From the IMG/VR virus record IMGVR_UViG_3300024352_000021: a stretch of 64,000 bases of DNA. One strand, given 5' to 3'. The position numbers and the translations under genes are program-made. Under the pieces are notes generated by a model. The model did no database searches. It was not told the DNA's origin and saw only the letters and a program-made list of their open reading frames with translations. Below, piece by piece: positions 1 to 34,739 of the stretch. The stretch's first letter is position 1; each line of letters opens with the position of its first letter. Source of the DNA: an uncultured virus (IMG/VR IMGVR_UViG_3300024352_000021). Its lineage: Duplodnaviria; Heunggongvirae; Uroviricota; Caudoviricetes.

Positions 1-98
1 GAGTTTCGCCGCACTGACCCCGTGACAGTGGTGATGGGGTAGTACCAGTTGAGGTCCCACCCCATCACCACTGTCACGGGGTCAGTGCGGCGAAACTC
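1..98. repeat. Perfect 40-bp inverted repeat (1-40 / 59-98) at window start; probable fold-back artefact
   Basis: 1-40 is the exact reverse complement of 59-98 with an 18-nt loop; it interrupts the primase-helicase reading frame. Confidence 0.9.
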
Positions 99-1541
99 CA
101 GATCCCGCATCTGCTGCTGAACCTGAACCTCGGACTGGTCGCCATTAAGGATCAACACAGATCCCGCCTGCACTGGAACGAGATCGCCGCGCACAGAGAA
201 CGGAATCCCCCGCGCCACGTGCTTAGCGATGGTCCACGCGGACATGGATTTGCCATCCCCACCAGCGCCGTGAATCATCACGGTTCCAGGGCAAGGCAAC
301 AGATCCGGGATCAGGTACTCAAAGTTGAGGTCCTTGTCGAGCAGATGAGACATGGCCATCTCGTCATCTTGCTGCTCAAACTGCATCTGAGCGATCAGCA
401 ACCGCTCCAGAGCCCCAGCGTCCCGGTAGCCAGCTTCGAGCGCCAACACGTTCATCGCGTGCGCAGCTTCAGCCGGGTTTTGAATCTGCTGGATCTCTTT
501 CGCCCGGCGAATCACCTCGGCGTAGGTGATGACGACTTGCCGAATCCGGGTGACGTTATCGGCCTCAACGGCCATAACAACTTTTCGCAAACCGGGTGAA
601 AGCCACATGCGCCCCGGCATCTGCTCATCAGCCATCCAGAACAGGGTTCCGAGGCTTACAGGCCCTTTGCGAAAACTTTTCCAGACCTCTTCACAGGGAT
701 TGTGGTTTGAATCTCCCCACTCCTCTGCGTACTCAGGATCATCGGCAGACCATGCCGACCACAACATCAAGCCAAGATCATTCGGCAACTCCGAGTGGAT
801 CGCCATCCCCACCTTGACCCAGTGATCGCGGCTACCACTGCCCTGCCCAGGAATAACTCGCAAGGCGGATTGAATGATCTCGGCAACCTCAGCTGGGTCT
901 CGATCTGAGAAATCAAGAGATTTACGGTTTTTGATAAAGCCGCCGTCTTGAACGTCCTTTCCGGCTGCATCCCGCATCTCCGCAAGCAGCCATTCAGGAG
1001 CATCAGGAATGACATCCAGATCGCCTTCAAAGCCGTACTGACCAGCTGGAGCCTTCCCATCACTGGAGCCCGGATAAGCGCCATAGAGGACGCCCTGACG
1101 GCCCCAGAGCACCTCATACCCAGCGCCGGTATCCGACAACCCAAAACCCTTCACCGAGGCCCACAGAGCCTCTGGGACGCGAAAGAGATACTTAGCGGCG
1201 TTGGCTTTGGTCGACGTGATGACTGGAGCACCTTCCAGCGACTCGCCCCACTTCTTTTTGAGACGACTGAGATTGCGATCCACATCAAGGATCACAAGCC
1301 CGCCACTACGGGCACCAGTGAACGCCCCCACCGCCTGGAACACATCAGGCTTGCGCTCAATCTGCAGCGCCACATCCGAAGGCGCCATCACCGTGTGATG
1401 ACTGCGCTCTAAGGGCGTCTTGCCCTTGCTGATTTTCCCGGACTGGATCGCCTTGCCCTTGGCGTAAATCGGGGCATAAGCGATTCCTGCAGGCAGCTGG
1501 CGCACAAACGCCAACAGCTCCTGCGTCTTACTTTGAGACAT
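41..1541 (-). CDS. Primase-polymerase/PriCT-2/AAA helicase, copy 1 (3' truncated)
   Basis: ATG at 1541 (MSQSKTQELLAFVRQLP); colinear with 45945-48362 including the GDGKS Walker A; runs off the window. Confidence 0.85.
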
Positions 1542-1681
1542 GCTAGACTCTCACACGAGAATGTTCATCACGCCCTACAGCCTTCTGGCCGTAGGGCGTT
1601 TTCTCATGCTAGCCAGCTCGTCAATCCCGTGTTACTGTATTAGACGTTGCCCTCGGGCGACCACCAAAACGCACCAAACAA

Positions 1682-2263
1682 ATGCCTTTCCTGTCCAAAA
1701 CCGCTTCGGCCGCAGTCAGCTCTAATGCCACAGGCGGCGGATACCTCAGCCTTAGCAAACTGCCCGATGGCGGCAGCGTCCGCTTCGCCCTACTCACTGA
1801 CGAACCTCTGGAGTTCTACGAATCCTGGGGCCAGTCCAACGGAGCTTCTAAACCCTTCCGCTTTGAATACGAGCCAACTTACGAAGATGTCGTGGCTGAA
1901 ATGGGCGATTTCGAGCCCCGAGAAGGCCGAGGAGGCCCCGGAACAGCCGACGTAAAGTTTGCCATCGCTGTCCCTATTTATTCATACGACACGGGTAAAG
2001 TTCAGGTTCTGCAAATCACTCAAAAGTCCATTCTTAAGGAGATTGATTCTATCTCCCAGATGGAAGATTACTCTGATTTGCTTAACTGGGATTTCACAAT
2101 CAGCAAGAAAGGTTCAGGTCTTTTGACCGAATATACGGTTCGTCCTGTACCTCGTAAGAAAGGTTCGCAAGAACACATTGACGCGGCTTGGCTTGAGGCT
2201 AAAGCCGAGGGCTTCGACATTTCGCGCCTACTCACAGGCGGGAACCCTTTCAAGGCCGCTTAA
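1682..2263 (+). CDS. Putative ssDNA-binding/recombination protein
   Basis: 193 aa; lies between primase and exonuclease; strongly conserved in the copy at 48504; function inferred from context. Confidence 0.55.
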   Translation: MPFLSKTASAAVSSNATGGGYLSLSKLPDGGSVRFALLTDEPLEFYESWGQSNGASKPFRFEYEPTYEDVVAEMGDFEPREGRGGPGTADVKFAIAVPIYSYDTGKVQVLQITQKSILKEIDSISQMEDYSDLLNWDFTISKKGSGLLTEYTVRPVPRKKGSQEHIDAAWLEAKAEGFDISRLLTGGNPFKAA

Positions 2264-2329
2264 GTCGGTATAGTGGTTGGGCAGCGGTGCTTACAACACC
2301 CTGCCCACGACCAACCGCACTACCGGCTG

Positions 2330-2842
2330 ATGGCACGAGCTTATCGCTTGCTCCCTAGCGCAGAACTGCTTTGGGAGCTTTTCGAGTACAGACCCTTGAC
2401 CGGCGAACTCGTGTGGCGCAAAGCCCCGAGCAACCGTGTTCGAGTTGGCTCAACAACAGGTTCAACCCACATGCAGGGGTATGTATCGACACGCTTAAAC
2501 GGAACTAGCTACCTGACGCATCGCCTTGTGTGGCTCTGGTTGCACGGCGAAGATCCCAAAAATTTTCAAGTGGATCACATCGACGGCAATCGGTTGAACA
2601 ACACGTGGAGCAATCTGCGTCTTGCTACTGCCTCACAGAACGCTTTCAACAGCAAGACACGCAAGCACAACACATCAAAGGTCAAAGGTGTTCGCCTAAT
2701 GCCTAACGGGCGCTTTCAAGCACGTATCCGAAAAGCCGGTGTTACCCACCACCTCGGAACTTTTGACACTGCCGAGCAAGCTGCACTGGCCTACGAAAAA
2801 GCCGCCGTGCAGTTGCACGGGGAATTTTCTCGTGTAAGGTAA
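2330..2842 (+). CDS. HNH homing endonuclease with AP2-like C-terminus
   Basis: HRLVW..VDHIDGNRLNNTWSNL motif; C-terminal HLGTFDTAEQAALAY. Confidence 0.9.
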   Translation: MARAYRLLPSAELLWELFEYRPLTGELVWRKAPSNRVRVGSTTGSTHMQGYVSTRLNGTSYLTHRLVWLWLHGEDPKNFQVDHIDGNRLNNTWSNLRLATASQNAFNSKTRKHNTSKVKGVRLMPNGRFQARIRKAGVTHHLGTFDTAEQAALAYEKAAVQLHGEFSRVR

Positions 2843-2862
2843 ATTCGGGAAAAAGTAACTAA

Positions 2863-3705
2863 ATGGCCTCCAACACCCAAGACACGCTGGCAGGACTGCG
2901 TAAATGGAGGCTGGAACAAGACAATTCAGGCCCCTTCCGGGTCTACCGAGACATTAACGGTAATATCTACCATAGTGTTACACACATCCTAAAGGAAACA
3001 AGCGACAAAACCGGATTGGAACGCTGGGAAGCTCGCCTGGGACCCGTTGAGGCAAGTTGCCAGCGGAATGTTGCAGCAACCCGAGGCAACATGGCCCACG
3101 GTCAAGCGGAATACCTATTGAAAACGGCAATGCAGCTGGCACGATCCACTGCAAACAAGCGCAACTCCATCCGCTGGGACGAACAGGGATTGGCACGCAT
3201 CCCGGCCCCCATCACGCAATGGGCATTGAAGAGGGTCCGGCCAAATGTTCCAAGGGTTGGCTGGAGCGCATCAGGCTACGCCCGAGGCTTATCCGACTGG
3301 ATCGCCGAGAACGTCACCGAAATTTTTGCCAGCGAATTTTCCATTCACCACCCCGCCGGCTTCGCCGGCACTTGTGACGCATTGGTGGGAATGAAGAATA
3401 ACGAGCTGGTACTAGCGGACTGGAAAACCAGCGTGGGCCGCAAAACCAAGCTCGACGATGAAGGACTGGAACGCCTCCCGCCGGGCCATTCCTATATCGA
3501 TCAGTGCGGTGCCTACAGCCTCGGCCTCACCCACCTCACCGGCCTCAAACCAACTGGAGCAGCCATCGTATTGGCACGCCGCTGCGGCAACCCCAACATT
3601 CACACGATGACTAGGGCAGAACTAGACGACGCTGAAAAGTCATTCATGGCCAGGGTGGAGCTTTACTTCGACCAGCTGCAAAACGCCATTCATGTCTCGG
3701 CCTAA
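2863..3705 (+). CDS. PD-(D/E)XK exonuclease
   Basis: HSVTHIL, FAGTCD, ADWKTS and Q..AY motifs. Confidence 0.8.
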   Translation: MASNTQDTLAGLRKWRLEQDNSGPFRVYRDINGNIYHSVTHILKETSDKTGLERWEARLGPVEASCQRNVAATRGNMAHGQAEYLLKTAMQLARSTANKRNSIRWDEQGLARIPAPITQWALKRVRPNVPRVGWSASGYARGLSDWIAENVTEIFASEFSIHHPAGFAGTCDALVGMKNNELVLADWKTSVGRKTKLDDEGLERLPPGHSYIDQCGAYSLGLTHLTGLKPTGAAIVLARRCGNPNIHTMTRAELDDAEKSFMARVELYFDQLQNAIHVSA

Positions 3706-3762
3706 CGGCCTCGACGAAAAGCCATTCATAACTGCCATTCATGTATTGTTTCGGCCATTCAT
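3685..3762 (+). repeat. GCCATTCAT direct repeats x4
   Basis: Copies at 3685, 3721, 3734 and 3754; similar cluster at 50532-50637. Confidence 0.9.
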
Positions 3763-3973
3763 AGCCTCAATACCTGGTACGTATTGGTACTTTTGCCGAT
3801 ACCTGTAGGCGCCCGATCCTCCCACGGTGGGAGGTCTGCTGGTGCTCAGCCCTCCGGGCTTCGCACACTGCGTCTCATGAGTCTCACTGAGAAGGGGAAT
3901 GAGAATCATTCTCAAGGCAAGGACAGCAGAAAGGCTCCCATGGTGGGAGCCCGTTAGGTCAACTGGAGCGTGC

Positions 3974-4396
3974 TCACCCCTGCGGGGTTCGCACTTTTCT
4001 AGAGGGCTGAGCTTTTCCCGCATCGCTCCGCTTTTTCCGGGGGGATCCGGAAGATGCTTTGACCCTCACAGCTGGAGCGGCTGGAGCTTTTTCTGGTGTG
4101 CGCGGAAAAAGTCCCGTAGCTTGTGGAAAACAATCAGCGGGAATGTCAGCCCCGCCATTGATGCGCTGGCAGTCTCGCCAGTACGGGATCAGCTCCCGGA
4201 ATAGTTGGAGCGGGCCTTCTTTACCGTGCTGTTGCTGGAGCGTTAAAAGGTCAGCCCAGTCCGAAGCCTCGATGCTGGAGCGTTCAATGGCCCATCGCAG
4301 ATCGCGTAGGTGGCGCTTCTCAAGGCGCAGCTGTTCGCGCTCAGCCTCTCGGCTCTCGCGCTGGCGTCCCTTGGTGGTCCACTCACCCCCGGTCAT
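3974..4396 (-). CDS. Hypothetical protein with basic C-terminal RKKRSDAGK motif
   Basis: Homolog at 50790-51185. Confidence 0.75.
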   Translation of the reverse strand: MTGGEWTTKGRQRESREAEREQLRLEKRHLRDLRWAIERSSIEASDWADLLTLQQQHGKEGPLQLFRELIPYWRDCQRINGGADIPADCFPQATGLFPRTPEKAPAAPAVRVKASSGSPRKKRSDAGKAQPSRKVRTPQG

Positions 4397-4665
4397 TCTT
4401 GGGGCTCCGCGTAGGCCGACTCGATGCGAGCACCGCAGCAGTCACAGTAGAGGGCTGGATCTTCCCAGTTAGCCTCAACCGCCACCAGACCCCAGCCGTC
4501 TGTGCCGGTTGTGGTTGCGATTGATTCGCGCTCAGCGCTGGCGCACCTATGGCAGCAGGCGCCGCCATCGTGAAAGATGCCAAACAGCGGGTAACCGCCT
4601 GGCCAAGCGTACGGGCTGGCACTGAGCTGATCAGCAAGCCGTAGGCTGCGAGATTGTGTGGTCAT
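4393..4665 (-). CDS. Hypothetical Cys-rich (Zn-binding) protein
   Basis: YAWPGGYP plus two CxxC pairs; overlaps the next gene's start. Confidence 0.7.
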   Translation of the reverse strand: MTTQSRSLRLADQLSASPYAWPGGYPLFGIFHDGGACCHRCASAERESIATTTGTDGWGLVAVEANWEDPALYCDCCGARIESAYAEPQE

Positions 4666-4810
4666 GGTGCCCTATGGGTGAGGGTTACCCTCTAACACTA
4701 CCACCAAGGGCAAGCGGCGCCGACCGTTTGAAGAAGTGTAACAGTAGGGAGGGTTATGGCTGGCGCTGGAGCGATGATGGGGGCTGAACACCTAGGGAGA
4801 CAATCCCACC

Positions 4811-5665
4811 ATGGCAACCACACCCAAGGCCAGCCCCGCTCTGCTGGAGCGTATTGATCGTCTCGCCGGATGCTCCGGCCACTGGCTGCTAATTCGAGAT
4901 GGCGAACCCGAGCGCGATGGTTTCGGCTCTTGGCACCAAAGCCCGGAGCGCCATCTCGAAACCTGCCTAGCCGAGCACTGGCGCGACGTGTCTCTCGGTT
5001 TCGTGCCCACCTATTGCGGCTGGAGCGATTACGCGAGCACCGGCCTTGTGGGTAAGGCTAATTACAACGTGCTCATCGATCCCTCCAGCACGCCGGACCC
5101 GCTCGGTGGAATCCTCACCGTTGGTTACGGCTGGAACGGTTCCGGCGTTGTGCTCGATCTGTTGCGGGTTTCTGCTGACGTGCTGGAGACTGTTGAAGCG
5201 CTGGAGTCCTACCCGCTGATCAGTGAAGACGAGCACTCCAGCTTGGAGCTGGAGGAGATTGAACGGGCTTGGCAAGACTCCTACGCGTCAGACTGGCGCG
5301 ATCTCGTGCGAGATCAGCTGGCCGCATACTGCCCAACCGACGTGCTGGAGCGTAACGCTTACGGCCCGAGCACCGCTAAGTTCTGGGCTGATGACCAGCT
5401 GGACTCACTGTTTGAAGACAAGCTGGAACGGGAACTGCAGGAACTGTTCCAGCTTTGCCTGGAGTGGAGCGGTGAAGGTTGGGTAGTGGAGGATCTCAGT
5501 AGCGGCGCGTATCTCAAGCTTGAGAAGGTTGCACGCGGAATCGACCGCTCAGACCTAGTGGCGCTCACTGGCTTGGCACTGCTGCCAGCGGATCATGAGT
5601 GGCGCCGGGAGTCCTACCCCTGGCCGGATGGTTCCGGCGGTGCTCTGGCTCCCGCGCTTGCCTAG
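4811..5665 (+). CDS. Acidic hypothetical protein (early region)
   Basis: 284 aa; near-identical copy at 51555-52409. Confidence 0.8.
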   Translation: MATTPKASPALLERIDRLAGCSGHWLLIRDGEPERDGFGSWHQSPERHLETCLAEHWRDVSLGFVPTYCGWSDYASTGLVGKANYNVLIDPSSTPDPLGGILTVGYGWNGSGVVLDLLRVSADVLETVEALESYPLISEDEHSSLELEEIERAWQDSYASDWRDLVRDQLAAYCPTDVLERNAYGPSTAKFWADDQLDSLFEDKLERELQELFQLCLEWSGEGWVVEDLSSGAYLKLEKVARGIDRSDLVALTGLALLPADHEWRRESYPWPDGSGGALAPALA

Positions 5666-5718
5666 TGGCGCGATCTGCTGTAATGTATTTCACGAGACCC
5701 AACCCATAGGCTCACACG

Positions 5719-6372
5719 ATGACTCGCTACACCACCGAACAGCTGGCGTCCTTCCCCTGGATCGTCAGCACTGACACGTTGCGCACCGATCACTTGGCGG
5801 ATGCCTACCTTGGCGCTTTTGACCGCTTGGAGCAAGACATACCGGAACCGTTCCGCTCAGATCTGCAGCAATGCGCCGCTTACGCTTCGGACCTTACCGG
5901 CCCGGAACCGTGCGACGCCTGGGATGAGGCTACTGCCTGGGCTTTCGACCGCCTGAAAGATCTGGCGCCGACTGGTTTCTACTTTGGCGCGTCCGAAGGC
6001 GATGGCTCTTGTTTCGGATTCTGGTTGCAGGAAGAATGGGCAGAGTGCCTGGAGCATTGCGGCTTTGCTGCAGACTCTGACCCTGCGGCTTTGGTGCCGA
6101 TCATCTCTGAGCTGTGCAGTTCTGGCGTTGATCCCGATACCTACCAAGACTGCTACCAAGGCGAGGCAGAAGGCTACACCTCAGAACAGGCCGGGGCAGA
6201 TTACGCTCAGCAGTTGGCCGATGAGTTAGGACTGCCCCCCAAGCTTGACGGCGCCAGCTGGCCAATGAGTTGTATTGACTGGCAGGCTGCTTGGCGCGAA
6301 CTAGAGCTTGGCGATGCCTACTGGTTACAGCGTATTAACGGGAGCCAATGGGCAGTATTCCGGCCTTGCTAA
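5719..6372 (+). CDS. ArdA-like antirestriction (DNA mimic) protein
   Basis: Very acidic; C-terminal YQGE..DYAQQLADE..IDWQAAWRELELGDAY resembles the ArdA C-terminus. Confidence 0.5.
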   Translation: MTRYTTEQLASFPWIVSTDTLRTDHLADAYLGAFDRLEQDIPEPFRSDLQQCAAYASDLTGPEPCDAWDEATAWAFDRLKDLAPTGFYFGASEGDGSCFGFWLQEEWAECLEHCGFAADSDPAALVPIISELCSSGVDPDTYQDCYQGEAEGYTSEQAGADYAQQLADELGLPPKLDGASWPMSCIDWQAAWRELELGDAYWLQRINGSQWAVFRPC

Positions 6373-6393
6373 CTGGCGTTCTTACCGATCAAC

Positions 6394-6420
6394 GGCCCGG
6401 CCAGTAGGTCGGGCTTTTTT
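6394..6420 (+). terminator. Intrinsic terminator
   Basis: ggcccggcc-agta-ggtcgggct followed by a T run. Confidence 0.75.
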
Positions 6421-6488
6421 CGCGGCGCTCGCTACGCTCGCTTGCGAAACGTGAGACCAAAGAGGTTACCATAAGAGCACAGCAGTTT

Positions 6489-6953
6489 GTGACATTAACC
6501 GTGGAAGAATCCGCTTCCCACGAAGTAGAAAAGCCCACCACCGTCGCAAACGATGAGGCAAAGCGCTGGCGCGGTGGGCGCGGCCCTGCAGACAAGGTGG
6601 AAGAGCGCGTGAACTGGTGTTATGCGGAAATCTTGCGCGGTGGAACACGTCGCCAGGTGACCGCTCGCCTTACTGAACGCTTCGGAACGTCCCTGAGAAC
6701 GGCAGACTCTGACTATTCGCGTGCTTTGGAGCTTTTAAAGGTTGAGCAAAGTGCTACAAGGTCGGATCTGCTGAACCAAATACAAGCGCTCCGCCTTGCG
6801 ACGGTGAGAAAAGCCCTAGCGAAGGGTCAACTGCAGACCGTAGCAATGCTGCTCAAGGACATGGGCGCGGTGATTGGAGAGGCTGCACCAGAGCAACAGG
6901 CCGCCGCTGCACCCACGCTGAACATCACGGTGGAAGACAAGCGCCAGGGCTAG
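6489..6953 (+). CDS. Putative terminase small subunit (HTH)
   Basis: HTH-like helical protein upstream of terL; C-terminus AAAPTLNITVEDKRQG shared with 53076-53546. Confidence 0.6.
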   Translation: MTLTVEESASHEVEKPTTVANDEAKRWRGGRGPADKVEERVNWCYAEILRGGTRRQVTARLTERFGTSLRTADSDYSRALELLKVEQSATRSDLLNQIQALRLATVRKALAKGQLQTVAMLLKDMGAVIGEAAPEQQAAAAPTLNITVEDKRQG

Positions 6954-7007
6954 CCATCTGGCCGATAGTGTGCAACAATGGGAGGCAAGCTAACCCCGCT
7001 CCCCACC

Positions 7008-7151
7008 ATGGATCGCCTCCTTACCCTCGCCGCACTGCTCACCGCTTGCGGTGTGCTCGCGATGGGCGCCGACAATGCGAACCAGCTGGCACGCTGCGAG
7101 TCTGCCGGACGCTCCGCTGCCGAGTGCCGCCTGGTGGTGCTCGGTCGCTGA
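7008..7151 (+). CDS. Small membrane/secreted protein with two conserved Cys
   Basis: MDRLLTLAALLTACGVLAMGADNANQLARCESAGRSAAECRLVVLGR; homolog at 53598. Confidence 0.7.
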   Translation: MDRLLTLAALLTACGVLAMGADNANQLARCESAGRSAAECRLVVLGR

Positions 7152-7342
7152 TCCGCGCGGTTAATACCGCCAGCCGCCCCGGGACTGAGAATCATTCTCA
7201 CCCGGGGTAGGGTTCGGGATCGGCAAAGGGCAGGTGCGGCCCAGGGAACCTACTGACATATCCTCAATTTCTTCTTCTGTACTACACCGGGGGCAGGGTA
7301 GCGATTCCTGTAATACCCTAGAAAGTACCCATACCACCAAAA

Positions 7343-8593
7343 ATGCCCGATTCTGCTGGAGCACTCACCCTTCGCTACGCCCAAGGCGAGGTGTTTTCCA
7401 GCCGAAAACGCTTCAGAGTATTGGTAGCTGGCCGAAGATTTGGCAAAAGTTATCTGTCATGTATCGAGTTATTGCGTGGGGCGATCGAAAGGCCGGGCGA
7501 AACCTTTTTCTATGCCGCCCCTACATACCGAATGGCGAAAGACATTGCCTGGAAGGTAATGAAACGCCTCGTCCCAAAAGCCTGGATCAAATCCAAGAAC
7601 GAAACGGACCTCAAGATCGAGTTAGTGAACGGCTCGACGATCGAACTAAAGGGCACTGAAAACGCCATGGCCCTGCGAGGCCGCAGTTTGGCTGGCGTCG
7701 TACTCGACGAAGCCGCATTTATGGACGCCGAGGTCTGGTTCGAGGTGATCCGCCCCGCCCTCGCGGATAAACAAGGCTGGGCATTGTTCATCTCAACGCC
7801 CGACGGCACCGCCAGCTGGTTCTACGAACTCTGGCAATACGCCGACAGCGGCGACAAGGACTGGAGCCGCTGGCAATTCACCACGATCGACGGCGATAAC
7901 GTCCCCCCGGAAGAAATCGAAGCCGCCCGTGCCCAACTCGACCCCCGCACCTTCCGCCAAGAGTTCGAGGCTAGCTTCGAGAATCTCAGCGGTCTCGTTG
8001 CCGTCTCATTCGGCGACGACAACATCGACAAACAAGTCCAAGACCTTCCGATTTTGCCCTTGCTGCTAGGCCTCGACTTCAACGTGGAGTTTATGGCGGG
8101 CGTGTTTGCGGTCAAAAAAGGCGAAGACCTGTGGGTATTTGACGAACTGATCCTTACAGGTGGAGCGACAACCTGGGATTTCTGCGAGGCTGTCCAGCAA
8201 AAGTTCGGAATTGAGCGCCGCATCATCGCGTGCCCCGATCCGACCGGCGGCGCTCGTAAAACAGCCGGCGTCGGCCAAACAGACCACTCAATTCTCCGCA
8301 AATCAGGCTTTACGGTGTCTAGCCCTCGCGCACCATGGAAAATTCGAGACAAAATCAACGCCGTAAATATGGGTTTGCTTGACGCCACAGGTCGCCGCCG
8401 CATCCATATCCATCCCCGCTGCAAAGAACTAATCAAGTCCCTACGAACCCTTACATACGCACCAAACACGGGTCTACCTAACAAAAACTTGGGAGTTGAC
8501 CATGCTTTCGATGCGCTGGGCTATCTCTGCCTACAGAGCTTCAACCTCGCCAAACCAGAAAGCCTCGGCAAAACGTCCTATCGTGTGTGGTAG
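7343..8593 (+). CDS. terL: Terminase large subunit
   Basis: Walker A AGRRFGKS, Walker B VVLDEAA, ISTP, nuclease LGLDFN and DHAFDALGY. Confidence 0.95.
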   Translation: MPDSAGALTLRYAQGEVFSSRKRFRVLVAGRRFGKSYLSCIELLRGAIERPGETFFYAAPTYRMAKDIAWKVMKRLVPKAWIKSKNETDLKIELVNGSTIELKGTENAMALRGRSLAGVVLDEAAFMDAEVWFEVIRPALADKQGWALFISTPDGTASWFYELWQYADSGDKDWSRWQFTTIDGDNVPPEEIEAARAQLDPRTFRQEFEASFENLSGLVAVSFGDDNIDKQVQDLPILPLLLGLDFNVEFMAGVFAVKKGEDLWVFDELILTGGATTWDFCEAVQQKFGIERRIIACPDPTGGARKTAGVGQTDHSILRKSGFTVSSPRAPWKIRDKINAVNMGLLDATGRRRIHIHPRCKELIKSLRTLTYAPNTGLPNKNLGVDHAFDALGYLCLQSFNLAKPESLGKTSYRVW

Positions 8594-8611
8594 CACCCTC
8601 CCTGGCACACA

Positions 8612-8779
8612 ATGGCGGCAAAAAAGCCCACCAAAGGCCAAAAGAAGGTCGAGAAAGTGATGTCAGAGTATAAATCTGGCGCACTCAAGTCCAGCTCGGG
8701 CAAAAAAGTAACTAGCCGCAAGCAAGCCATCGCCATTGCGATGAGCGAGGCTGGCATGAGCAAGAAAAAGAGGAAGTAA
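8612..8779 (+). CDS. Small Lys-rich basic protein (DUF6496-like)
   Basis: MAAKKPTKGQKKVEKVMSEYKSGALKSSSGKKVTSRKQAIAIAMSEAG; homolog at 55258. Confidence 0.75.
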   Translation: MAAKKPTKGQKKVEKVMSEYKSGALKSSSGKKVTSRKQAIAIAMSEAGMSKKKRK

Positions 8780-8781
8780 CC

Positions 8782-9132
8782 ATGGCCGCCGTAGCAACTA
8801 CAAAAATTAACCGTTACACCAATACAGTCGAGTACTACGGCGCTGCAATGACCGCTGTAGACGACTGGTTTGAAGTAGGTGCTCACTCTAGTGAGTACAC
8901 GTTTGCGGTACTTGTTACCGGCGGCGCAAACTTTAAGCTTGCCTTGGAATGTGGCTGCGCTGAAAGCGCCGCGTGGTTTACCATCGAAACCAGCAAAACA
9001 ATTAGCTCAAACGGCGCCTACACCTACCCATACACAGGACGAGCATCTTCTCGCATCCGCGTACGCATTGAAGAAATTAGCTCTGGTACTCCTAGCGTTA
9101 CACCTCTTATTGCAGTCGCATATCACGGCTAA
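8782..9132 (+). CDS. Hypothetical beta-rich virion-type protein
   Basis: Tightly coupled ORF; positional counterpart 55608-55976. Confidence 0.65.
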   Translation: MAAVATTKINRYTNTVEYYGAAMTAVDDWFEVGAHSSEYTFAVLVTGGANFKLALECGCAESAAWFTIETSKTISSNGAYTYPYTGRASSRIRVRIEEISSGTPSVTPLIAVAYHG

Positions 9133-9329
9133 TGGCAATCCAAACCGTCAACGGAGGCTGTGTTCACATCGAAATTGATGCTGAAGATGGTCTCACCCAC
9201 GCCACTTTTGTATTCAAATCTCCTCAAAACCCCGAAATCCTCGGCGGCTTCGTATCAATGCTTGCCCAAGGCATCGAAGTGCTGGTTCCTATTTCAGATC
9301 CCGACGACGAGGAAGACGACGATGATTGA
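9132..9329 (+). CDS. Hypothetical protein with acidic tail
   Basis: Nearly identical protein at 55976-56173. Confidence 0.75.
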   Translation: MAIQTVNGGCVHIEIDAEDGLTHATFVFKSPQNPEILGGFVSMLAQGIEVLVPISDPDDEEDDDD

Positions 9330-9361
9330 TGCCAAAATAAGTACACAGTAGGAGCCTAGCC

Positions 9362-10804
9362 GTGGTCTACAGCGCCAACGTCCCGCCAACTGGAGCTGTA
9401 GTCAGCGAATCCCCGTTCGTCCGCAGCCTCGAAGTCATCGGCATGATGCCGGACTGGGGCGTAATGGCAGCTGTCACGCGCGGCACGAACTACATCCGCG
9501 ACATGAGCGAGACTTACCTCCCTCAAGAACCGCGTGAAGACGACGACGCGTACCAAACCCGCGTAGATCGCAGCGTCCTCAGCCCGTACACCAGCCGCCT
9601 GATCGAAACCGCTGCTGGCGCCATCCTGCGCAAGCCTATCCACATCGAAGGCGACCCCTACTGGCTGGAGCTTGCACAAAACATCGACGGTATCGGCTCC
9701 AACATCAACGAATACGCCCGCCGTGCGCTTGTAAGCAGCCTTACCTATGGCCACAGCGCGATCTTGGTGGACTATCCCGCAGCAATGGGAGCGCGAAATC
9801 TTGCTGAAGAACGCGCCCAGGGCCGCCGCCCCTACTTCGTGCACGTCGACGCCCCCCAGATCTGGGGGTGGCGCAAGGAATCCGGCACCAACCGGCTACT
9901 ACAAGTCCGCATCCACGACTACGACGTTCGCCCGCTGAACGAATTCGGCGAGGAACAGGTCGAAGAAATGCGCGTCATCTACCCCGGCCGCTACGACCTC
10001 TACACACTGGGCCAAGAACTGGTCGAGTTCACCGCCACGGGCGGCTACAGCCTCGACGAAATCCCCCTAGTCCCGATCTACAGCAACCGCCGTGGCCTGC
10101 TGGTATCCCAGCCCCCGCTGCTGGACATTGCAAATCTGAATATCACCCACTACCAACGCCAAGCCGACCTGATCCACGCCCTTCACATCGCCGCCATGCC
10201 CACCCTCGTCCTAGAGGGCTGGGACGACACCACCGGCTCCGCAACGATGGGCGTCAACTACGCCATCGCCATGCAACCGGGCAACAAGGCGTACTACGTG
10301 CAGGCCGACGCCACCAGCTTCGACGCGCAGATGCAGGAACTCCAGTCCCTGGAGAGCCAAATGTCCACACTGGGCGTTACCAAACTCTTCGGCCAGAAGT
10401 TTGTCGCTGAGTCCGCCGAGGCCAAGCGCATCGACCAAGCCCAATCCAACAGTGTGCTCTCGATTATCAGCCAAGAACTGGAAAGCGCCCTCAACCAAGC
10501 CTTTGCGTTTGCCGCCCAATACGTGGGCATGGAACCCCCCGAGATCACAATTGACCGCGACTTCGACTACTACCGCCTAATCGGCCAAGACGTGTCTGTG
10601 CTGACGCAACTGAACCTGATGGGCAAGATTAGCGACGCGATGCTGCTGGAGATCCTGCGTCGCGGCGAAGTCCTGCCTGACAACATCAACATCGAAGACG
10701 AAGTTGAGGCCGCCGGCAAAACCGCAACTGCCCTCACAGAAGAACCAGAAACAGAGGAAGAACCCGACTCCAGCGACAGCAGGAATGAATCTGCTATGTC
10801 TTAA
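9362..10804 (+). CDS. Portal protein (DUF4055 type)
   Basis: Size and position; YLPQEPRE, PPLLDIANLNITHYQRQAD motifs. Confidence 0.85.
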   Translation: MVYSANVPPTGAVVSESPFVRSLEVIGMMPDWGVMAAVTRGTNYIRDMSETYLPQEPREDDDAYQTRVDRSVLSPYTSRLIETAAGAILRKPIHIEGDPYWLELAQNIDGIGSNINEYARRALVSSLTYGHSAILVDYPAAMGARNLAEERAQGRRPYFVHVDAPQIWGWRKESGTNRLLQVRIHDYDVRPLNEFGEEQVEEMRVIYPGRYDLYTLGQELVEFTATGGYSLDEIPLVPIYSNRRGLLVSQPPLLDIANLNITHYQRQADLIHALHIAAMPTLVLEGWDDTTGSATMGVNYAIAMQPGNKAYYVQADATSFDAQMQELQSLESQMSTLGVTKLFGQKFVAESAEAKRIDQAQSNSVLSIISQELESALNQAFAFAAQYVGMEPPEITIDRDFDYYRLIGQDVSVLTQLNLMGKISDAMLLEILRRGEVLPDNINIEDEVEAAGKTATALTEEPETEEEPDSSDSRNESAMS

Positions 10805-10839
10805 CTGCTAATCTATAAGTGTCCAAGTAACACATAACT

Positions 10840-11547
10840 GTGCCCGAAGAACAGCAAGCACCAGTGACTCTTGTGGAGCCTGTTGCCCCTCAGCCTGTGG
10901 CTGAAAGCTCCGATCTGGCCGCCCAACTCGAAGCGCTTCGTGCGAAAAACCAAGAGTTGATCGCCGAGCGCCGCAAGGACCGCGAAAACCGCGAAACCCT
11001 TCAAAAACAAATCGAGGATCTGCGCATCGCGCAAGAATCCGCAAAAACCGCAAAGTTGGCGGAATCCGGCGAGTTCAAAACTCTCTGGGAGCAAGCCCAA
11101 GAAACAGTCGCCGAGCTCAAGCAAAAGCTCGCAGCAAAAGAATCCGAAGTGGAACAAATCCGCCAAGGATTCACACAAGAACAAGTGAAGTCCGCTGCGA
11201 TAGCACAACTCTCCCAAGCTGGTGCACTGGCACCTGATCAGCTGTATCGTTTACTTCAGGAGAACCTACGCGCTAAAGAAGGACAGCCTGTGGCTGTTGT
11301 CGGCGGCGTCGAAGTTCCAGTTGGTGAATACATCGCCAACTTAAAGAACCCCGGCAGCGGTTACGAGCATCATTTTGCAGCTACGAACCGTGCCGGCATG
11401 GGTGTTACGGGTAGTGCCCGCAATACCTCCCTCCCCGGCCAAGCCAACCCCTGGTCTAAGGACAGCTGGAACGTCACTCAGCAAATGATGATGTTGAACA
11501 GCGACCCCGACAAAGCCCGGTTGTTGAAAGCTGAGGCCGGCCTCTAG
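10840..11547 (+). CDS. Capsid scaffolding protein
   Basis: Coiled coil with C-terminal NPW motif; lies between portal and capsid genes. Confidence 0.75.
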   Translation: MPEEQQAPVTLVEPVAPQPVAESSDLAAQLEALRAKNQELIAERRKDRENRETLQKQIEDLRIAQESAKTAKLAESGEFKTLWEQAQETVAELKQKLAAKESEVEQIRQGFTQEQVKSAAIAQLSQAGALAPDQLYRLLQENLRAKEGQPVAVVGGVEVPVGEYIANLKNPGSGYEHHFAATNRAGMGVTGSARNTSLPGQANPWSKDSWNVTQQMMMLNSDPDKARLLKAEAGL

Positions 11548-11594
11548 CCCCTGTGGGGCAACCTCCCCAACCTTGACTCCACTGGAGCTACCAA

Positions 11595-12701
11595 ATGTCT
11601 GCTTCTAACAGCAACTTCGGGGGAACTTTTCTCTCGAACCTTGTAACTCGTCCCGAGTTTCTTCAGTACACCGCTGAGGGCATCTTCGAGCAGTCGAAGT
11701 GGATCCAGAGCGGCATCGTGCAGCGCAACGCTGCCCTCGACGCCCGCGCTGGCGGCACCCGCGTGCGCGTGCCTTTCTTCGACCCCATCGCCCCTAGCGA
11801 AACCCAAATCCTCTCCACCTCCAGCTGGAACGGTGGCTTGGGTTATCTGACCGCCCAGAACGTCACTGCCGACGAGCAGATCATGACGATTCTGCACCGT
11901 GGCTTTGCCTACGCCGCAGACGACCTCAGCAAGCTCGGCTCTGGCGCCGATCCTTTGGCCCACGTCCGCAACCAGCTGACCGCCGCCATCAACAAACTGA
12001 AGACCGCCACCCTGTCTGCTCAACTGCTGGGTCTGTTCGGTGGTATCTCTGGCGCTGGCGTGCTTGGTCCCAACCAGACCGACAAATCGTTCGCTGGTGT
12101 CCCCGGTTCAATGACCGAGGCCAACTTCCTGAACGTTGCCAACGTGGTGGCCGCCAAGGCCAAGCTGGGCGAGCGAGGCGACAACTTCGACTCCATCGCC
12201 ATGCACTCCAACGTTGCGTATTACCTCCAGCAGGTGGGGATGCTGACCTTCAGCACCTCTGCACTGTCTGCAGGTGGCGCCGTTGTGTGGGGCGGCGGCG
12301 GTGTGGGCGTGACCCAAACCGAAGTGGCGACCTTCGCCGGTCTCCGCGTGGTGATCGACGACCAGCTGACCGCCCTGACCGGCGGCACCTCGACTCACGC
12401 CAAGAAGTACCCCGTGTACCTCTTCCAGAGCGGCGTCGTTTCCGAGGGCATCCAACAGGATCTGCGTCTGGCTGCAGACCGCAACATCCTGTCGATGCAG
12501 GACATCCTGGCCGTGGATTACCACTACGGTTACCACGTGACCGGCACCAAGTGGAACGTGGCTGGCGACAACCCGACCAACGCTGCCACCACCGGCAACC
12601 TGGCCGACACCGCCTCCTGGAGCCTGGTGTACAGCAGCACCAAGCAAGTGCCCATCGCTCGCTTGCTCTGCAATACGCCCTTCGACACAACGGCGTACTG
12701 A
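11595..12701 (+). CDS. Major capsid protein
   Basis: 368 aa, strong codon bias, followed by a terminator; homolog at 58978. Confidence 0.85.
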   Translation: MSASNSNFGGTFLSNLVTRPEFLQYTAEGIFEQSKWIQSGIVQRNAALDARAGGTRVRVPFFDPIAPSETQILSTSSWNGGLGYLTAQNVTADEQIMTILHRGFAYAADDLSKLGSGADPLAHVRNQLTAAINKLKTATLSAQLLGLFGGISGAGVLGPNQTDKSFAGVPGSMTEANFLNVANVVAAKAKLGERGDNFDSIAMHSNVAYYLQQVGMLTFSTSALSAGGAVVWGGGGVGVTQTEVATFAGLRVVIDDQLTALTGGTSTHAKKYPVYLFQSGVVSEGIQQDLRLAADRNILSMQDILAVDYHYGYHVTGTKWNVAGDNPTNAATTGNLADTASWSLVYSSTKQVPIARLLCNTPFDTTAY

Positions 12702-12728
12702 CAAACAGCTTTACTTGCTGTACGATAC

Positions 12729-12753
12729 GGGCTCCTTACGGGAGCCCTTTTTT
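12729..12753 (+). terminator. Intrinsic terminator after capsid gene
   Basis: gggctcc-ttacg-ggagccc then T run. Confidence 0.85.
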
Positions 12754-12754
12754 C

Positions 12755-13264
12755 ATGGAATTACGTCGGATCCCTTCGGTAATCGGTTACAGCGCAACAA
12801 AAACAGGAGAAATTTACAGCCACCATCGGTTTGAACCTTTTCCCTTAAAGCAGACTTTGCATACTCAGGGGTATAGACAGGTCAACTTAAAAACAACTAA
12901 GGGTTTTAGAACTCGATTAGTCCACGTTTTGGTTCTTGAGGCATGGGTAGGTCCACGCCCAGAAAAAATGGTTACAAACCATAAGAACGGAGACAAAACC
13001 GATAACAGACTTGAAAATCTTGAGTATGTAACGCAAACGGAAAATATGAAGCACTCCTACGCAATGGGGCTAAGCCCAAAACCACCAACGCGCTACGGGG
13101 AACAGCTGACGCACCTTACAAAAATGACAACAGAAAAAGTCCTGGCTCTACGAGCCGAAAACGACCGCGAACCAGGCTATCTACAGCGTATGGCAAGTAA
13201 GTACGGAATTACTGCCGCAACAGTGTCAAAAATCCTGCTGCGCCAAACGTGGAAACACCTTTAA
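12755..13264 (+). CDS. HNH homing endonuclease (NUMOD4-HNH type)
   Basis: VHVLVLEAW..NHKNGDKTDNRLENLEYVT; AT-rich; absent from the second copy. Confidence 0.85.
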   Translation: MELRRIPSVIGYSATKTGEIYSHHRFEPFPLKQTLHTQGYRQVNLKTTKGFRTRLVHVLVLEAWVGPRPEKMVTNHKNGDKTDNRLENLEYVTQTENMKHSYAMGLSPKPPTRYGEQLTHLTKMTTEKVLALRAENDREPGYLQRMASKYGITAATVSKILLRQTWKHL

Positions 13265-13536
13265 CCCTCAATCTCACCAATCCGAATCCGCTCCTGATAC
13301 TCAAAAATCACTGGAGCACGACCCACCATCTTGTAAGAGTGGCTGAGCAGTTCACGAAATACATGCGGACTGACGGCCAGCTCCTGCTGGATAGTCTCTG
13401 CATCTTTACCGGCAGCGAACATTTCGCGGATTGCCTCAGCAACAGGCTCCAGTGCGCGAACGGTGTCACCGGGCAGCGCGGACGGTGCGGATTTCTCCTT
13501 TACTTCTAGGCTGTCAGCAGCTTTGCGAGCAGGCAT
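13261..13536 (-). CDS. Hypothetical protein, possible HTH
   Basis: 91-aa ORF antisense to the structural operon. Confidence 0.55.
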   Translation of the reverse strand: MPARKAADSLEVKEKSAPSALPGDTVRALEPVAEAIREMFAAGKDAETIQQELAVSPHVFRELLSHSYKMVGRAPVIFEYQERIRIGEIEG

Positions 13537-13729
13537 GAGTACAGTGCGTCTCTTCGTACTACAGGATAACTGTCGCAGCTTTGTTGACGTTCAGTACGGC
13601 CAACACCTAGAAGCCCAAGCCGAACTCGAAATGTTTGGCGCCAAGGTTTATCACTCAATGGTGCTACGTGACCCACCCAAACAGAGGAAATCACGCACTG
13701 GCGCTAGACTCAAACAAAGGATGTACTGA
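13535..13729 (+). CDS. Hypothetical protein
   Basis: MSTVRLFVLQDN...; start codon overlaps the divergent ORF's start. Confidence 0.55.
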   Translation: MSTVRLFVLQDNCRSFVDVQYGQHLEAQAELEMFGAKVYHSMVLRDPPKQRKSRTGARLKQRMY

Positions 13730-13731
13730 TT

Positions 13732-14262
13732 GTGGCTGCCGTCATTGATGCCACTGTTGCCGGCGCGTCAGCCAATAGCTACGTGACGCTGGCCGCCGCA
13801 AACACATACTTCGAGACCGTCCCAGACTCGGCCACTTGGACCGATAAGACTGACGACCAAAAAAACCGCGCCCTCATCAGCGCCACCCGCTGGATCGACG
13901 CCCTCAGCTTTTACGGCGACCGCTGCACCACAACCCAAGCTTTGAAGTGGCCCCGCGAGGACTTCGAGGTTGACGGCATCGAACTGGTCTGCACCATCAT
14001 CCCGACAGAAATCAAAGTCGCCACCTACGAACTGGCACGCGCCCTCGCCAACGACACAGACGCCATCACGGGCAGCACCGGCACAACCGGCCTCTACGAC
14101 CAAGTGGAACTGGGCGAACTGAAGGTCAAATACAAGTCCAGCTCGACAACACCAGGCATGGTGAACAACGTCTTCGACCTATACCCCTGGCTGCAGACTT
14201 ACCTTGGCGCTTACTGCATGGGCGGCGCCACCAACTACGCCGTCCGTCTACGTCGAGGCTGA
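13732..14262 (+). CDS. Head-tail adaptor (DnaT-like family)
   Basis: ANSYVTLA, ALISATRWID and QALKWPR motifs. Confidence 0.75.
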   Translation: MAAVIDATVAGASANSYVTLAAANTYFETVPDSATWTDKTDDQKNRALISATRWIDALSFYGDRCTTTQALKWPREDFEVDGIELVCTIIPTEIKVATYELARALANDTDAITGSTGTTGLYDQVELGELKVKYKSSSTTPGMVNNVFDLYPWLQTYLGAYCMGGATNYAVRLRRG

Positions 14263-14263
14263 C

Positions 14264-14641
14264 ATGGGCCTGATCGACACCACTTTCGCCCCAATTCCCA
14301 CCTCAGTCCTCGCCGACTGGGGCCAAAACATCACGTACATCAAAACCGCAACACCCCGCACCTACAACCCCACCACCGGAGCGGTCACTGGTTCCGACAC
14401 TACCGTCACGGTCAAAGGTGTTATTACGCGCGTAAGTCCTCGTGAGGCCGAGGGTCTTTACCAAACAACCGATCTCAAAGTCATCATCGGCGTCAGTGAA
14501 CTTGGCACCTACTACCCAACCGAAGCCGACCGCATCCAGTACCAACAGGCTGGAGCAACTCGTGAGGCAAAGATCATCGCCATCACCACTTATCGCGGCG
14601 ACAACCCGGTCTACCACTCCCTAATCGTGAGGCCCCAATAA
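14264..14641 (+). CDS. Head closure/stopper protein
   Basis: YNPTTG motif; position; homolog at 60676. Confidence 0.65.
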   Translation: MGLIDTTFAPIPTSVLADWGQNITYIKTATPRTYNPTTGAVTGSDTTVTVKGVITRVSPREAEGLYQTTDLKVIIGVSELGTYYPTEADRIQYQQAGATREAKIIAITTYRGDNPVYHSLIVRPQ

Positions 14642-15189
14642 TGGCACGTAAAGGAAATTTTCTAAACGAACTGGATCGCTTAGGACAAAATCTGGATCGT
14701 CTTGCTGTTGCAGCTTTTAGTCGAGGACCAGCTCGCGCCGCAGAAGAAATTGTCGTAGATCTACAAGAAGCAGGCCCTGTGTGGTCAGGTAAGTTTTCAA
14801 ACTCTTGGCAAATTGAAACCACTGACGGACGCCGGACTGCAGGTGATGGGGCCCCTGGTGTTCCACGGCGTGTACCTGCACCACTGCTTAGCGGGCGCGG
14901 TTTTGCCTTCGATGATGTTAAGTACACCATCTCAAATTTCGCATCTTACGCAGACGAAGCACGCGACTTAGCAGAAGGCATTTTTATCGACCCCGGTACA
15001 ACTCCGCTAAAGGAATATGATCGCGGCACTCGTGTAAGTGGCTATCGCGGCGACTTGATAGGGGATGATGAAGGCCCTAACCGCAGCACAGCCCCACTTG
15101 ACTGGTACACAACCTATGCCCGTGGCGGTGCTATAGATAGGCGGATACGGATTGAAATGGACGAAGAACTGGGACGCATCCGTTTATGA
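14641..15189 (+). CDS. Neck protein (HK97 gp10-like)
   Basis: GPVWSGKFSNSW motif; position. Confidence 0.55.
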   Translation: MARKGNFLNELDRLGQNLDRLAVAAFSRGPARAAEEIVVDLQEAGPVWSGKFSNSWQIETTDGRRTAGDGAPGVPRRVPAPLLSGRGFAFDDVKYTISNFASYADEARDLAEGIFIDPGTTPLKEYDRGTRVSGYRGDLIGDDEGPNRSTAPLDWYTTYARGGAIDRRIRIEMDEELGRIRL

Positions 15190-15617
15190 ACTACCAAGCA
15201 ATCCGCGCCGCTGTCGAAAATCCGCTTCTTACAGCGTTTGGTGCACTGGTGCCACCAGTACCCGTGTATTTCGACAACATCACAGCGGTCCCGCCTAACA
15301 CCACCACTGAGTACGTTCGCGTCAATGTTACTTTCGGTATTACCAACGAACCCACGCTTACCAGCAGCGTTGACAACGCCCGTGGCGCTGTTGTTATCCG
15401 CATTTTCACCGAAAAAGGCAAAGGCCCAGCCCGCAACCAAGCATTGATCACCACAGCAGTCAATGCATTGGAAACACTAAACAACACCGCCAAAACAACA
15501 AGCGGCGTGTTTTTCCGCGTCGGCGAAATCAATGGGCCGACATTTTCAGCGACAGAGGAAGCCCCACACTTTGTAGGAAGGATTGATACCTCTTACGTCG
15601 CAACTGTTTTGTCGTAG
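15186..15617 (+). CDS. Tail terminator/completion protein
   Basis: PVYFDN motif; directly upstream of the tail tube gene. Confidence 0.6.
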   Translation: MNYQAIRAAVENPLLTAFGALVPPVPVYFDNITAVPPNTTTEYVRVNVTFGITNEPTLTSSVDNARGAVVIRIFTEKGKGPARNQALITTAVNALETLNNTAKTTSGVFFRVGEINGPTFSATEEAPHFVGRIDTSYVATVLS

Positions 15618-15693
15618 GTGATGCTTAACAACAGGCGCTAACCTGTATTAAGCCGGGCAGTGCCCGCCCAACAACGTTCACTTGGTACGCCCT

Positions 15694-16464
15694 ATGGCCA
15701 CCACCGTTCTGTCCGGCACGTCCGGCGCTCTTTACTACAAACCCGCCGGCACCACCGGCACTTTCGGCGAAGCCGGCGTCAACACCGGCACCGATGTAAT
15801 CACTGTTGCTCCCTACCTGAACTTCAAGGCAGGCGACCCGGTGAAATTCCGCGTGGTGAACAGCCAGACCGGCGGCTCCGGCACCGGCACCCTGCCTGCG
15901 CCCATCTCTGACGCCACCACCTACTACGTCCTGAGCTACACCGCTGCAACTGGTGCGCTCACCGTATCGACTTCTGTTGGCGGCACCATCTTGGCCATCA
16001 CCGACGATGGTACTGCGGCTGCCCCCAACGAGTTCGAGGTGTACTACGCCGATTTCGCCGTTGTCGGCCAAGTCCGCGACTGGAGCTTCGAGATCAGCCG
16101 CGCTGAGATCGACGTAACCACCATCGGTCAAACCCCTGGCCAGTACGTGCCCTTCCGCAGCTACATCAGCGGCTTTGGCGATGGCACCGGCACCGCAACG
16201 GTCTACATGACCAACGAGGACGCCGCCCTGTCCAACCGCATGATCGAGGACGTGCTCCAGCGCCAGCAAAACGGCGCTGCCTTCAAGCTGTACACCGACC
16301 GCGTGTATAGCGGCGGCACCCTGAGCGATACCCTTAGCCGTTCGATCAGCTTTGATGCCGTGCTGACCTCTGCCAGCCTGAACATCAACCCCGACGACGC
16401 CCAATCGGTGACCGTCAACTTCCGTCCCGCCGGCACCCCTACCTTCGACTTCTCCAAGTCCTGA
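15694..16464 (+). CDS. Major tail tube protein
   Basis: VRDWSFEISRAEIDVTT motif; followed by terminator and chaperones. Confidence 0.8.
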   Translation: MATTVLSGTSGALYYKPAGTTGTFGEAGVNTGTDVITVAPYLNFKAGDPVKFRVVNSQTGGSGTGTLPAPISDATTYYVLSYTAATGALTVSTSVGGTILAITDDGTAAAPNEFEVYYADFAVVGQVRDWSFEISRAEIDVTTIGQTPGQYVPFRSYISGFGDGTGTATVYMTNEDAALSNRMIEDVLQRQQNGAAFKLYTDRVYSGGTLSDTLSRSISFDAVLTSASLNINPDDAQSVTVNFRPAGTPTFDFSKS

Positions 16465-16491
16465 TAGGCTGCTGGAGCAGTTGGATTCAGC

Positions 16492-34737: not shown

Positions 34738-34739
34738 CG

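Follow-up and report, generated by a model that had tools for sequence, protein, structure and literature searches.

The stretch of DNA analyzed here, called the window in the following, comprises 64,000 nucleotides of an uncultured tailed phage (Caudoviricetes) deposited as IMG/VR record IMGVR_UViG_3300024352_000021, and its most conspicuous feature is a cluster of the word TGGAGCG on the + strand at 3964-5471. A first-pass annotation of the sequence had taken this cluster for an oriented DNA-level signal beside the packaging region. Signal and orientation were both borne out; the cluster is, however, no stand-alone local element but the densest part of a polar word with the core CTGGAGC that is spread over the whole genome and over a whole phage family. 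In a large family of tailed phages with genomes of ~42-47 kb, the word, (R)CTGGAGC(G), is a signal at the DNA level that is strand-specific and under positive selection. It is written through synonymous codons in genes of both orientations as well as in intergenic DNA, stands always on the sense strand of the terminase and structural genes and is densest in the 1.5-2 kb directly upstream of the packaging genes. The cluster interval itself sits between recombination/replication genes and packaging genes. Gene assignments were obtained by PHROGs and Pfam profile searches of the window proteins, and the features needed below are the following:

1682-2260: SSB-like gene, a weak match
2273-2839: HNH endonuclease with AP2 domain
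2863-3702, + strand: PD-(D/E)XK exonuclease, directly upstream of cluster copy 1
3964-5471, + strand: cluster copy 1, ten TGGAGCG, nine of them with the CTGGAGC core
3974-4396, - strand: p140, 140 amino acids, basic coiled-coil-like N-terminus, four antisense copies of the motif in three frames
4393-4665, - strand: p90, 90 amino acids, cysteine-rich (phrog_18452, E 5.9e-19)
4666-4810: divergent promoter region, lying within the cluster
4811-5665, + strand: p284, 284 amino acids, family phrog_3906 of unknown function, four sense copies of the motif in two frames
5719-6953, + strand: variable cassette of p217, hairpin and p154, free of the motif in the window
5719-6372, + strand: p217, often missing in relatives
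6394-6425: terminator-like hairpin between p217 and p154
6489-6953, + strand: p154, putative small terminase subunit (TerS), a weak lead only (nearest named clusters score 0.88)
7343-8593, + strand: large terminase subunit (TerL; phrog_2, E 6.7e-47; Terminase_6N), opening the packaging/structural module
from 9362: portal, followed by head, tail and fibre genes
from 33610: endolysin
33757-38464: looser second motif zone that begins at the lysis genes and reaches the DNA polymerase gene, with TGGAGCG 12 times on the + and twice on the - strand
36421-38244: DNA polymerase A, in a leftward early block together with a dCTP deaminase
45948-48362, - strand: primase-polymerase/helicase, 805 amino acids
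50781-52215, + strand: cluster copy 2, the corresponding locus of a second strain, with TGGAGCG 14 times and on the + strand only

All ten + strand sites reported by the first-pass annotation are present (3964, 4073, 4206, 4236, 4276, 4767, 4845, 5021, 5346 and 5465, i.e., at spacings of 109, 133, 30, 40, 491, 78, 176, 325 and 119 bp), and GC precedes seven of them. The reported lack of a reverse-strand copy was likewise confirmed and extends well beyond the interval, the - strand being devoid of TGGAGCG between 403 and 24498. Copies were found in different frames, as had been described, and two of them (3964 and 4767) are intergenic. Over the whole window 55 copies were counted (48 on the + strand, 7 on the - strand) against 11.42 expected on both strands from 100 dinucleotide shuffles, none of which reached this number (standard deviation 3.34, largest value 23). 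For the eight in-gene copies of the cluster, synonymous shuffling of the three genes concerned predicted 1.98 (standard deviation 1.13, maximum 6, 0 of 2000 shuffles reaching eight) and permutation of codon order only 0.47. Since the enrichment survives a codon-preserving shuffle, codon choice is not sufficient to account for it, as the earlier annotation had already held. No other 2 kb of the window is as rich in G+C as the cluster (0.608), and the word is G-rich although its strand is C-rich.

A second copy of the locus became available through the structure of the window, which is a composite of two related tailed-phage genomes arranged head to tail with a period of ~46.8 kb. Direct repeats of 72-91% identity connect 1-17000 to 46800-64000; the part from 44545 to 64000 is 98.8% identical to a complete 42.5 kb IMG/VR record (G002), and the part before 44545 belongs to a different strain. 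The window runs ~1.37 times round a ~46.8 kb circular map with a switch of strain near 44545, which probably reflects an assembly that, in a mixed population, walked on round a genome of circular or concatemeric form. In cluster copy 2 the 13 in-gene copies compare with 2.83 expected, 0 of 2000 synonymous shuffles reaching 13, and five of its sites have no counterpart in copy 1. Across the aligned locus the two strains are 80.6% identical, and nine of the ten sites were kept, as compared to 716 of 1973 (36%) other 7-mers. Individual sites are thus gained and lost while their density is kept, and sites and density are both under selection. In the looser zone at 33757-38464 most of the + copies are antisense within minus-strand genes.

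In order to follow the word beyond the cluster, the first 46.8 kb of the window were pooled with five whole relatives (268 kb in total, with the late genes set to the + strand); these six genomes are related and hence no independent samples. CTGGAGCG was found 112 times on the + and 14 times on the - strand of this set and GCTGGAGCG 63 and eight times, and the same two words are the most strand-skewed among all 6- to 9-mers of the window (37/2 and 24/1, respectively). Each of the five whole relatives displays the asymmetry (23/2, 17/0, 18/1, 18/3 and 16/6). From single-letter variants the word was determined as R-CTGGAGC-G, with positions 2-5 and 8 strict and A tolerated at position 7 (GCTGGAACG, 31/2), and it ranks first by frequency among the octamers of five of the six genomes. 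Under synonymous shuffling of the six genomes, CTGGAGCG on the + strand was 8.5-fold enriched where it is antisense, in minus-strand genes (53 vs 6.2 expected), and also enriched in plus-strand genes (52 vs 21.7), while on the - strand six copies stood against 3.1 expected in plus-strand genes and seven against 3.9 in minus-strand genes. Genome by genome, 5-12 antisense copies in minus-strand genes compare with 0.7-1.4 expected, and 0 of 200 shuffles reached the observed number in any genome. Between genes, CTGGARCG occurs 12 times on the + strand and once on the - strand. Within minus-strand genes CTGGAGC ranks first among all 7-mers (107 vs 17.5 expected), followed by TGGAGCG, and six control words differing by one or two letters remained near expectation.

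The distribution along the map was examined in sixteenths counted from the start of TerL, with CTGGAGC pooled over the six genomes. The peak of the word falls within the final 12% of the map ahead of TerL, whose sense strand is the motif strand: the last three sixteenths before TerL hold 29/10, 39/0 and 27/0 copies (+/-) and the first sixteenth 17/0 (-19% to +6%). Strand purity is highest round the TerL start, with 83 + and no - copies in three bins; the depletion of the - strand near TerL is, however, not significant by itself (0 vs 2.8 expected, 5 of 100 shuffles also giving 0). The early genes are moderately enriched, the replication/recombination module in bins 9-15 holding 22, 20, 14, 6, 29, 39 and 27 + copies, and about half of all copies lie 15-30 kb away from the packaging genes, in early genes. 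A tail-fibre region of 7-8 kb is nearly empty (5 and 1 copies in bins 6-7). A single bin, at a fraction of 0.75-0.81 from the TerL start (~42400-45300), favors the opposite strand with 6 + and 17 - copies (7.4 - expected), its - copies being sense copies in leftward early genes.

Relatives were retrieved from IMG/VR. The first-pass annotation had made its reading depend on a cluster at the same locus in related phages, and among 58 loci encoding a p284 relative, 45 (L001-L045) reach 59% identity or more across most or part of the protein; 44 of these 45 possess at least two + copies in the interval from -1000 to +900 relative to where p284 starts, and the tabulated copies of all 45 add up to 238 on the + and 2 on the - strand. 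Upstream site positions differ between the lineages. The remaining 13 loci, which are more distant or truncated, showed any copy in only two cases. A distant clade (L048-L055) has its p284 homologue turned round with respect to TerL and the exonuclease, and the word keeps to the TerL-sense strand (e.g., 7 vs 0 in 6.2 kb; TGGAACG 9 vs 0). Among the best 80 of 556 loci with a relative of the primase, at 55-100% identity, polarity was kept in nearly all. As the word persists in these relatives, including those with inverted p284, the signal must be regarded as old and as shared by the whole family, and it goes with the polarity of the genome and not with a single gene. TerL is the most conserved protein among the motif-bearing relatives (75-100% identity); the 80 retained loci with an endolysin relative, all 88-100% identical, belong to the same phage family. 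A scan of IMG/VR for three closely spaced TGGAGCG yielded, among the matches listed, 1 of 120 from this family, most of the listed matches being coding repeats in tandem whose modal spacings are 9-42 bp. Taken together, synonymous shuffles, intergenic and antisense copies, conservation between the two cluster copies and the comparison of relatives establish an oriented DNA-level signal.

Further words were noted in the same six genomes. CTGGCAC(G) is a second polar word on the same strand, evenly spread and unclustered, with 39 copies vs 9.5 expected in minus-strand genes (its reverse complement 5 vs 5.6) and 95 vs 39.7 in plus-strand genes; the degenerate CTGGNRC displays the same bias more weakly, and the relative L044, which lacks CTGGAGCG, has CTGGCAC eight times on one strand and never on the other. 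CTCGAGCG is depleted (1 vs 6.1 expected in plus-strand genes, 0 vs 2.8 in minus-strand genes), which suggests avoidance of the palindrome CTCGAG as a possible restriction site.

Among the neighboring genes, p140 has no match in Pfam, PHROGs or PADLOC; tblastn placed homologues on that strand in the majority of relatives, which marks it as a real gene. For p284 the Atlas search gave no usable match and the structure model is of low confidence (mean predicted local distance difference test, pLDDT, 53), and PADLOC found no matches for nine proteins neighboring the cluster. In some relatives the cluster reaches into the PD-(D/E)XK exonuclease gene. The identity of p154 across relatives ranges from 31 to 100%, and in contigs of all four public runs compared position 5725 is joined straight to 6897, with 1171 bases (5726-6896) skipped; the p217/p154 stretch before TerL, including the putative TerS, thus is a swappable cassette between highly conserved flanks. 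Apart from the replaced cassette the contigs of these runs displayed only strain variation, with neither molecule ends nor nicks. Elsewhere in the window, a 52-nt repeat family of 67-87% identity occurs in small early genes (41578-41629, 44127-44178 and 45281-45332), two of the genes holding it being phrog_32006 paralogues, and G+C drops to 0.44 at 18001-20000 in the tape-measure gene compared to ~0.55 elsewhere. Scans of the window for tRNAs and Rfam families found nothing, and blastn of 3000-7000 against GenBank phages gave no match.

Among the mechanisms considered, a Chi-type, end-proximal and direction-dependent signal read by RecBCD of the host is seen as the most likely, a preference held tentatively. 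Co-oriented copies, drifting positions, conserved density and a peak beside the presumed packaging end point to a reader that would track DNA one way from a free end and recognize each site with limited probability, so that many co-oriented copies would be stacked. RecBCD entering the right-hand end, which would be either the packaging-cut end (last packaged, first injected) or a rolling-circle tail, would meet the + copies from their 3' side within 1-2 kb. There it would switch from degradation to loading of RecA, which would protect the phage DNA and promote recombination for circles and concatemers, and the main anti-phage nuclease of the host would be turned into a recombination helper. 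Of the readers that the first-pass annotation had put forward, a Chi-like one fits this anatomy best, while a loading site for TerS is disfavored, as the word stays constant where the cassette with the putative TerS varies or is replaced.

GCTGGAGC equals the Pseudomonas Chi GCTGGCGC in seven of eight letters and the E. coli Chi GCTGGTGG in six (Chi sequences as given in the part of Zheng et al., 2025, PMC12315714, that deals with Chi-rich phages), and like these it is G-rich, asymmetric and eight letters long. The same part of that paper describes phages rich in Chi that lack a Rec module, namely E. coli phage LLS, P. aeruginosa phage MD8 with relatives, and P1. [quoted passage not shown] As far as these phages are described there, the present family resembles them in that its 8-mer is the phage's most frequent octamer, begins with GCTGG and is more abundant than codon usage would have it, in that ~90-100% of the copies are on the late-gene-sense (top) strand, and in that the copies gather before the terminase end, the right end of a lambda-type map, at about one per 2 kb. 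It differs in that GCTGGAGC(G) is a candidate and no organism's proven Chi, its host being an uncultured presumed picocyanobacterium, in that the phage looks lytic and has its own DNA polymerase, primase and an exonuclease adjoining the cluster, and in the second, unclustered polar word CTGGCAC.

Picocyanobacteria are inferred as the likely host family from sequence similarity. The endolysin shares 58.8% identity with its counterpart in Synechococcus phage S-CBS1, and of 208 records that matched, 167 are named Synechococcus phages; the nearest portals are those of cyanosiphoviruses (33-37% identity), and the public runs containing the sequence are riverine and freshwater metagenomes. In the family to which a Vulcanococcus genome belongs, 37 of 41 genomes sampled gave a RecC match (PF04257) above the curated cut-off, and recBCD in marine picocyanobacteria has been reported in the part of PMC5101192 consulted. 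In eight host-family genomes the 9-mer occurs 666, 324, 133, 555, 452, 58, 291 and 71 times, the reversed control 9-mer 65, 24, 36, 75, 23, 21, 36 and 22 times, and by abundance GCTGGAGC ranks 13th and 41st among the octamers of two of these genomes. That GCTGGAGC(G) is the Chi of picocyanobacterial RecBCD (Synechococcus, Cyanobium, Prochlorococcus lineage), stacked by freshwater cyanophages at the first-exposed end, is worth proposing, but as a doubtful possibility.

Several observations weigh against a Chi-type signal. Real E. coli Chi is enriched on the leading strand, and the first-pass annotation had looked to candidate host chromosomes for a skewed over-representation; the expectation failed in both orientable host-family genomes to which the leading-strand test was applied. 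A further genome, G048, is a draft with a first contig of 321 kb that offers no orientation, and it was left out. G018 is complete (2.41 Mb) and its GC skew switches cleanly; in 60 samples of 20 kb, leading and lagging counts were 462/565 for CTGGAGC, 130/178 for CTGGAGCG, which ranks 1563 of 15015 octamers by skew, and 217/269 for GCTGGAGC. The leading fraction of the word amounts to 0.42-0.45 in G018 and to 0.49 in G031, where CTGGAGC was counted 113 times on the leading and 118 times on the lagging strand. For no Chi-like word does G018 show much polarity beyond what composition gives, and the test is therefore of limited power there. Sampled over 400 kb of G031, the word exceeded expectation 1.5-fold in sense (75 vs 49.4) and 1.2-fold in antisense (16 vs 13.2); it is mostly sense-coded, and its abundance in hosts is hence largely codon-driven. 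Five cultured Synechococcus phages (S-CBS1, S-EIVl, S-CBP1, DSL-LC07 and S-CRES1) hold 1-5 copies each, and none is enriched. No relative of p284 was found in 185,579 species genomes, so that neither a prophage nor a bin gives a link to a host, which is deduced from similarity, and the DNA end near the cluster is a presumed one, the material consisting of contigs. Some likeness to Chi is to be expected of any frequent word containing CTG. The phage furthermore has its own PD-(D/E)XK exonuclease and a weakly matching SSB-like gene by the cluster, whereas Chi-rich phages, in the part of PMC12315714 concerned with them, are mostly without a Rec module; no annealing protein or RecBCD inhibitor was recognized in the profile searches of the window proteins.

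The most leading-biased words of G018 are rich in GTTG (GTTGGGTG 52 vs 5, GGAGTTGG 99 vs 23) and may be polar signals of its own chromosome. Host leading-strand words such as GGTGTTG are found on the - strand of the phage, which only mirrors base composition.

Alternatively, and equally new, the word may be read by a phage-encoded directional enzyme of an undescribed kind. In its replicative form, with start or loading sites for the 805-residue primase-polymerase/helicase, the cluster as an origin-proximal array and the single strand as a mark of one-directional replication, this explanation is the serious rival that comes next after Chi, improbable as we hold it to be. The phage primase-polymerase NrS-1 is said to initiate sequence-specifically. 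As far as tested the word is private to the phage family, the five other Synechococcus phages not being enriched in it and host-family chromosomes showing no polarity of it; it is dense across the replication/recombination module, and its polarity is kept in the primase relatives described above, down to 55% identity. The skew at four-fold sites has a DNA-strand component (GC ~-0.21) that suggests one-directional replication, although this inference is confounded by expression-linked codon bias (gene class). An origin-proximal array is furthermore hard to reconcile with the most G+C-rich position in the window and with spacings that are irregular and lineage-dependent, unlike those of origin iterons. 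The nearly empty tail-fibre region implies that the word cannot serve general lagging-strand priming. As all relatives share TerL at 75% identity or more, their comparison cannot separate the replication module from the rest.

A packaging signal, either a pac-type recognition array of the terminase or a directional cue for the motor, is considered unlikely, in spite of a peak on the sense strand of the packaging genes and directly upstream of them, of the purest polarity at the TerL start and of TerL being the best conserved protein of the motif-bearing relatives. The putative TerS, p154, is only 31-80% identical in most relatives, and the whole cassette at 5726-6896 is replaced in co-occurring strains, while the word is invariant in either case. 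About half of the copies are 15-30 kb off in early genes, site positions turn over, and the missing - copies near TerL are, as stated, not significant.

Less probable again are targets of a phage nicking endonuclease. Strand-specific nicks reportedly occur in T5, tf and phiKMV-like phages, and a nick consensus is an asymmetric word on one strand only, which the present word resembles. Five HNH endonuclease genes in the window (2273-2839, 33034-33366, 40146-40613, 43173-43655 and 49152-49703), one of them with an AP2 DNA-binding domain, could supply the enzyme. Their presence and position vary among relatives, as for homing endonucleases; they are absent or 29-100% identical and stand in varying places, whereas the word is constant, and we know of no precedent among nick sites for an 8-fold enrichment or a cluster of 10-14 copies.

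About as improbable, and if anything slightly more so, is a signal linked to transcription, be it a repressor site of the stoperator type, an element for antitermination or pausing on the non-template strand, or a pairing of late CUGGAGCG with early CGCUCCAG transcripts at the RNA level. Rightward genes have the word in sense and leftward genes in antisense, so that the two kinds of transcript would be complementary at the sites, and the cluster spans the divergent promoter region. Such models nevertheless fail on the orientation of the word, which ignores gene direction; there is also no positional rule relative to gene starts or ends, and no Rfam family matched anywhere in the window.

Some known systems were set beside the word and rejected. 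Stoperators of cluster A mycobacteriophages follow transcription in their orientation, and repressor sites of this type were discarded as the word remains on the same DNA strand in + and - genes. Origin iterons and pac or cosB arrays share with the cluster the form of direct repeats near replication or packaging genes, unlike which its spacing is irregular (14 to 491 bp) and strain-dependent, and the cluster lies in G+C-rich coding DNA over a span of 1.5 kb with half of the copies dispersed. Iterons were rejected for the lack of regular phasing in a region that is the most G+C-rich and not A+T-rich, and a terminase-binding pac/cosB array for copies dispersed over the early region and for a lack of co-variation with p154, itself a lead only. 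In T7 the EcoP15I sites CAGCAG are said to lie all in one orientation, and an asymmetric short word in nearly one orientation genome-wide is found here as well. The T7 pattern is one of avoidance and not of enrichment, whereas the favored orientation is 2.4- to 8.5-fold enriched in the present phages and the other is not depleted; an orientation bias caused by Type III restriction was rejected on the same counts (- strand 6 vs 3.1 and 7 vs 3.9, + strand enriched).

A by-product of Leu-Glu-Arg codons or of base composition, for which one could cite that CTG-GAG-CGN is a common codon run, that in a host-family genome the word lies mostly in sense and exceeds expectation ~1.5-fold and that CTGGAACG, encoding the same residues, is also enriched, is extremely improbable and as a coding artefact excluded, since enrichment is strongest in antisense, holds in intergenic DNA and in several frames beyond all shuffles (0 of 200 per genome, 0 of 2000 per cluster), and a G-rich word stands on a C-rich strand.

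To our knowledge no cyanobacterial Chi sequence has been described. A search of the literature found nothing on the CTGGAGC(G) word or on Chi in cyanophages, and the comparative paper PMC5101192, in the part consulted, names only the Chi sites of E. coli and B. subtilis and HIP1. The freshwater phage family in question is large and abundant, with more than 500 relatives in IMG/VR. If the Chi reading is true, the word would provide a concrete candidate sequence for picocyanobacterial RecBCD, and the host-recombination strategy of Chi-rich phages would extend from proteobacterial lambdoids to lytic phages of globally important phototrophs. If instead the reader is encoded by the phage, this family would show, cleanly and in abundance, a directional signal of an undescribed kind that runs through the whole genome.

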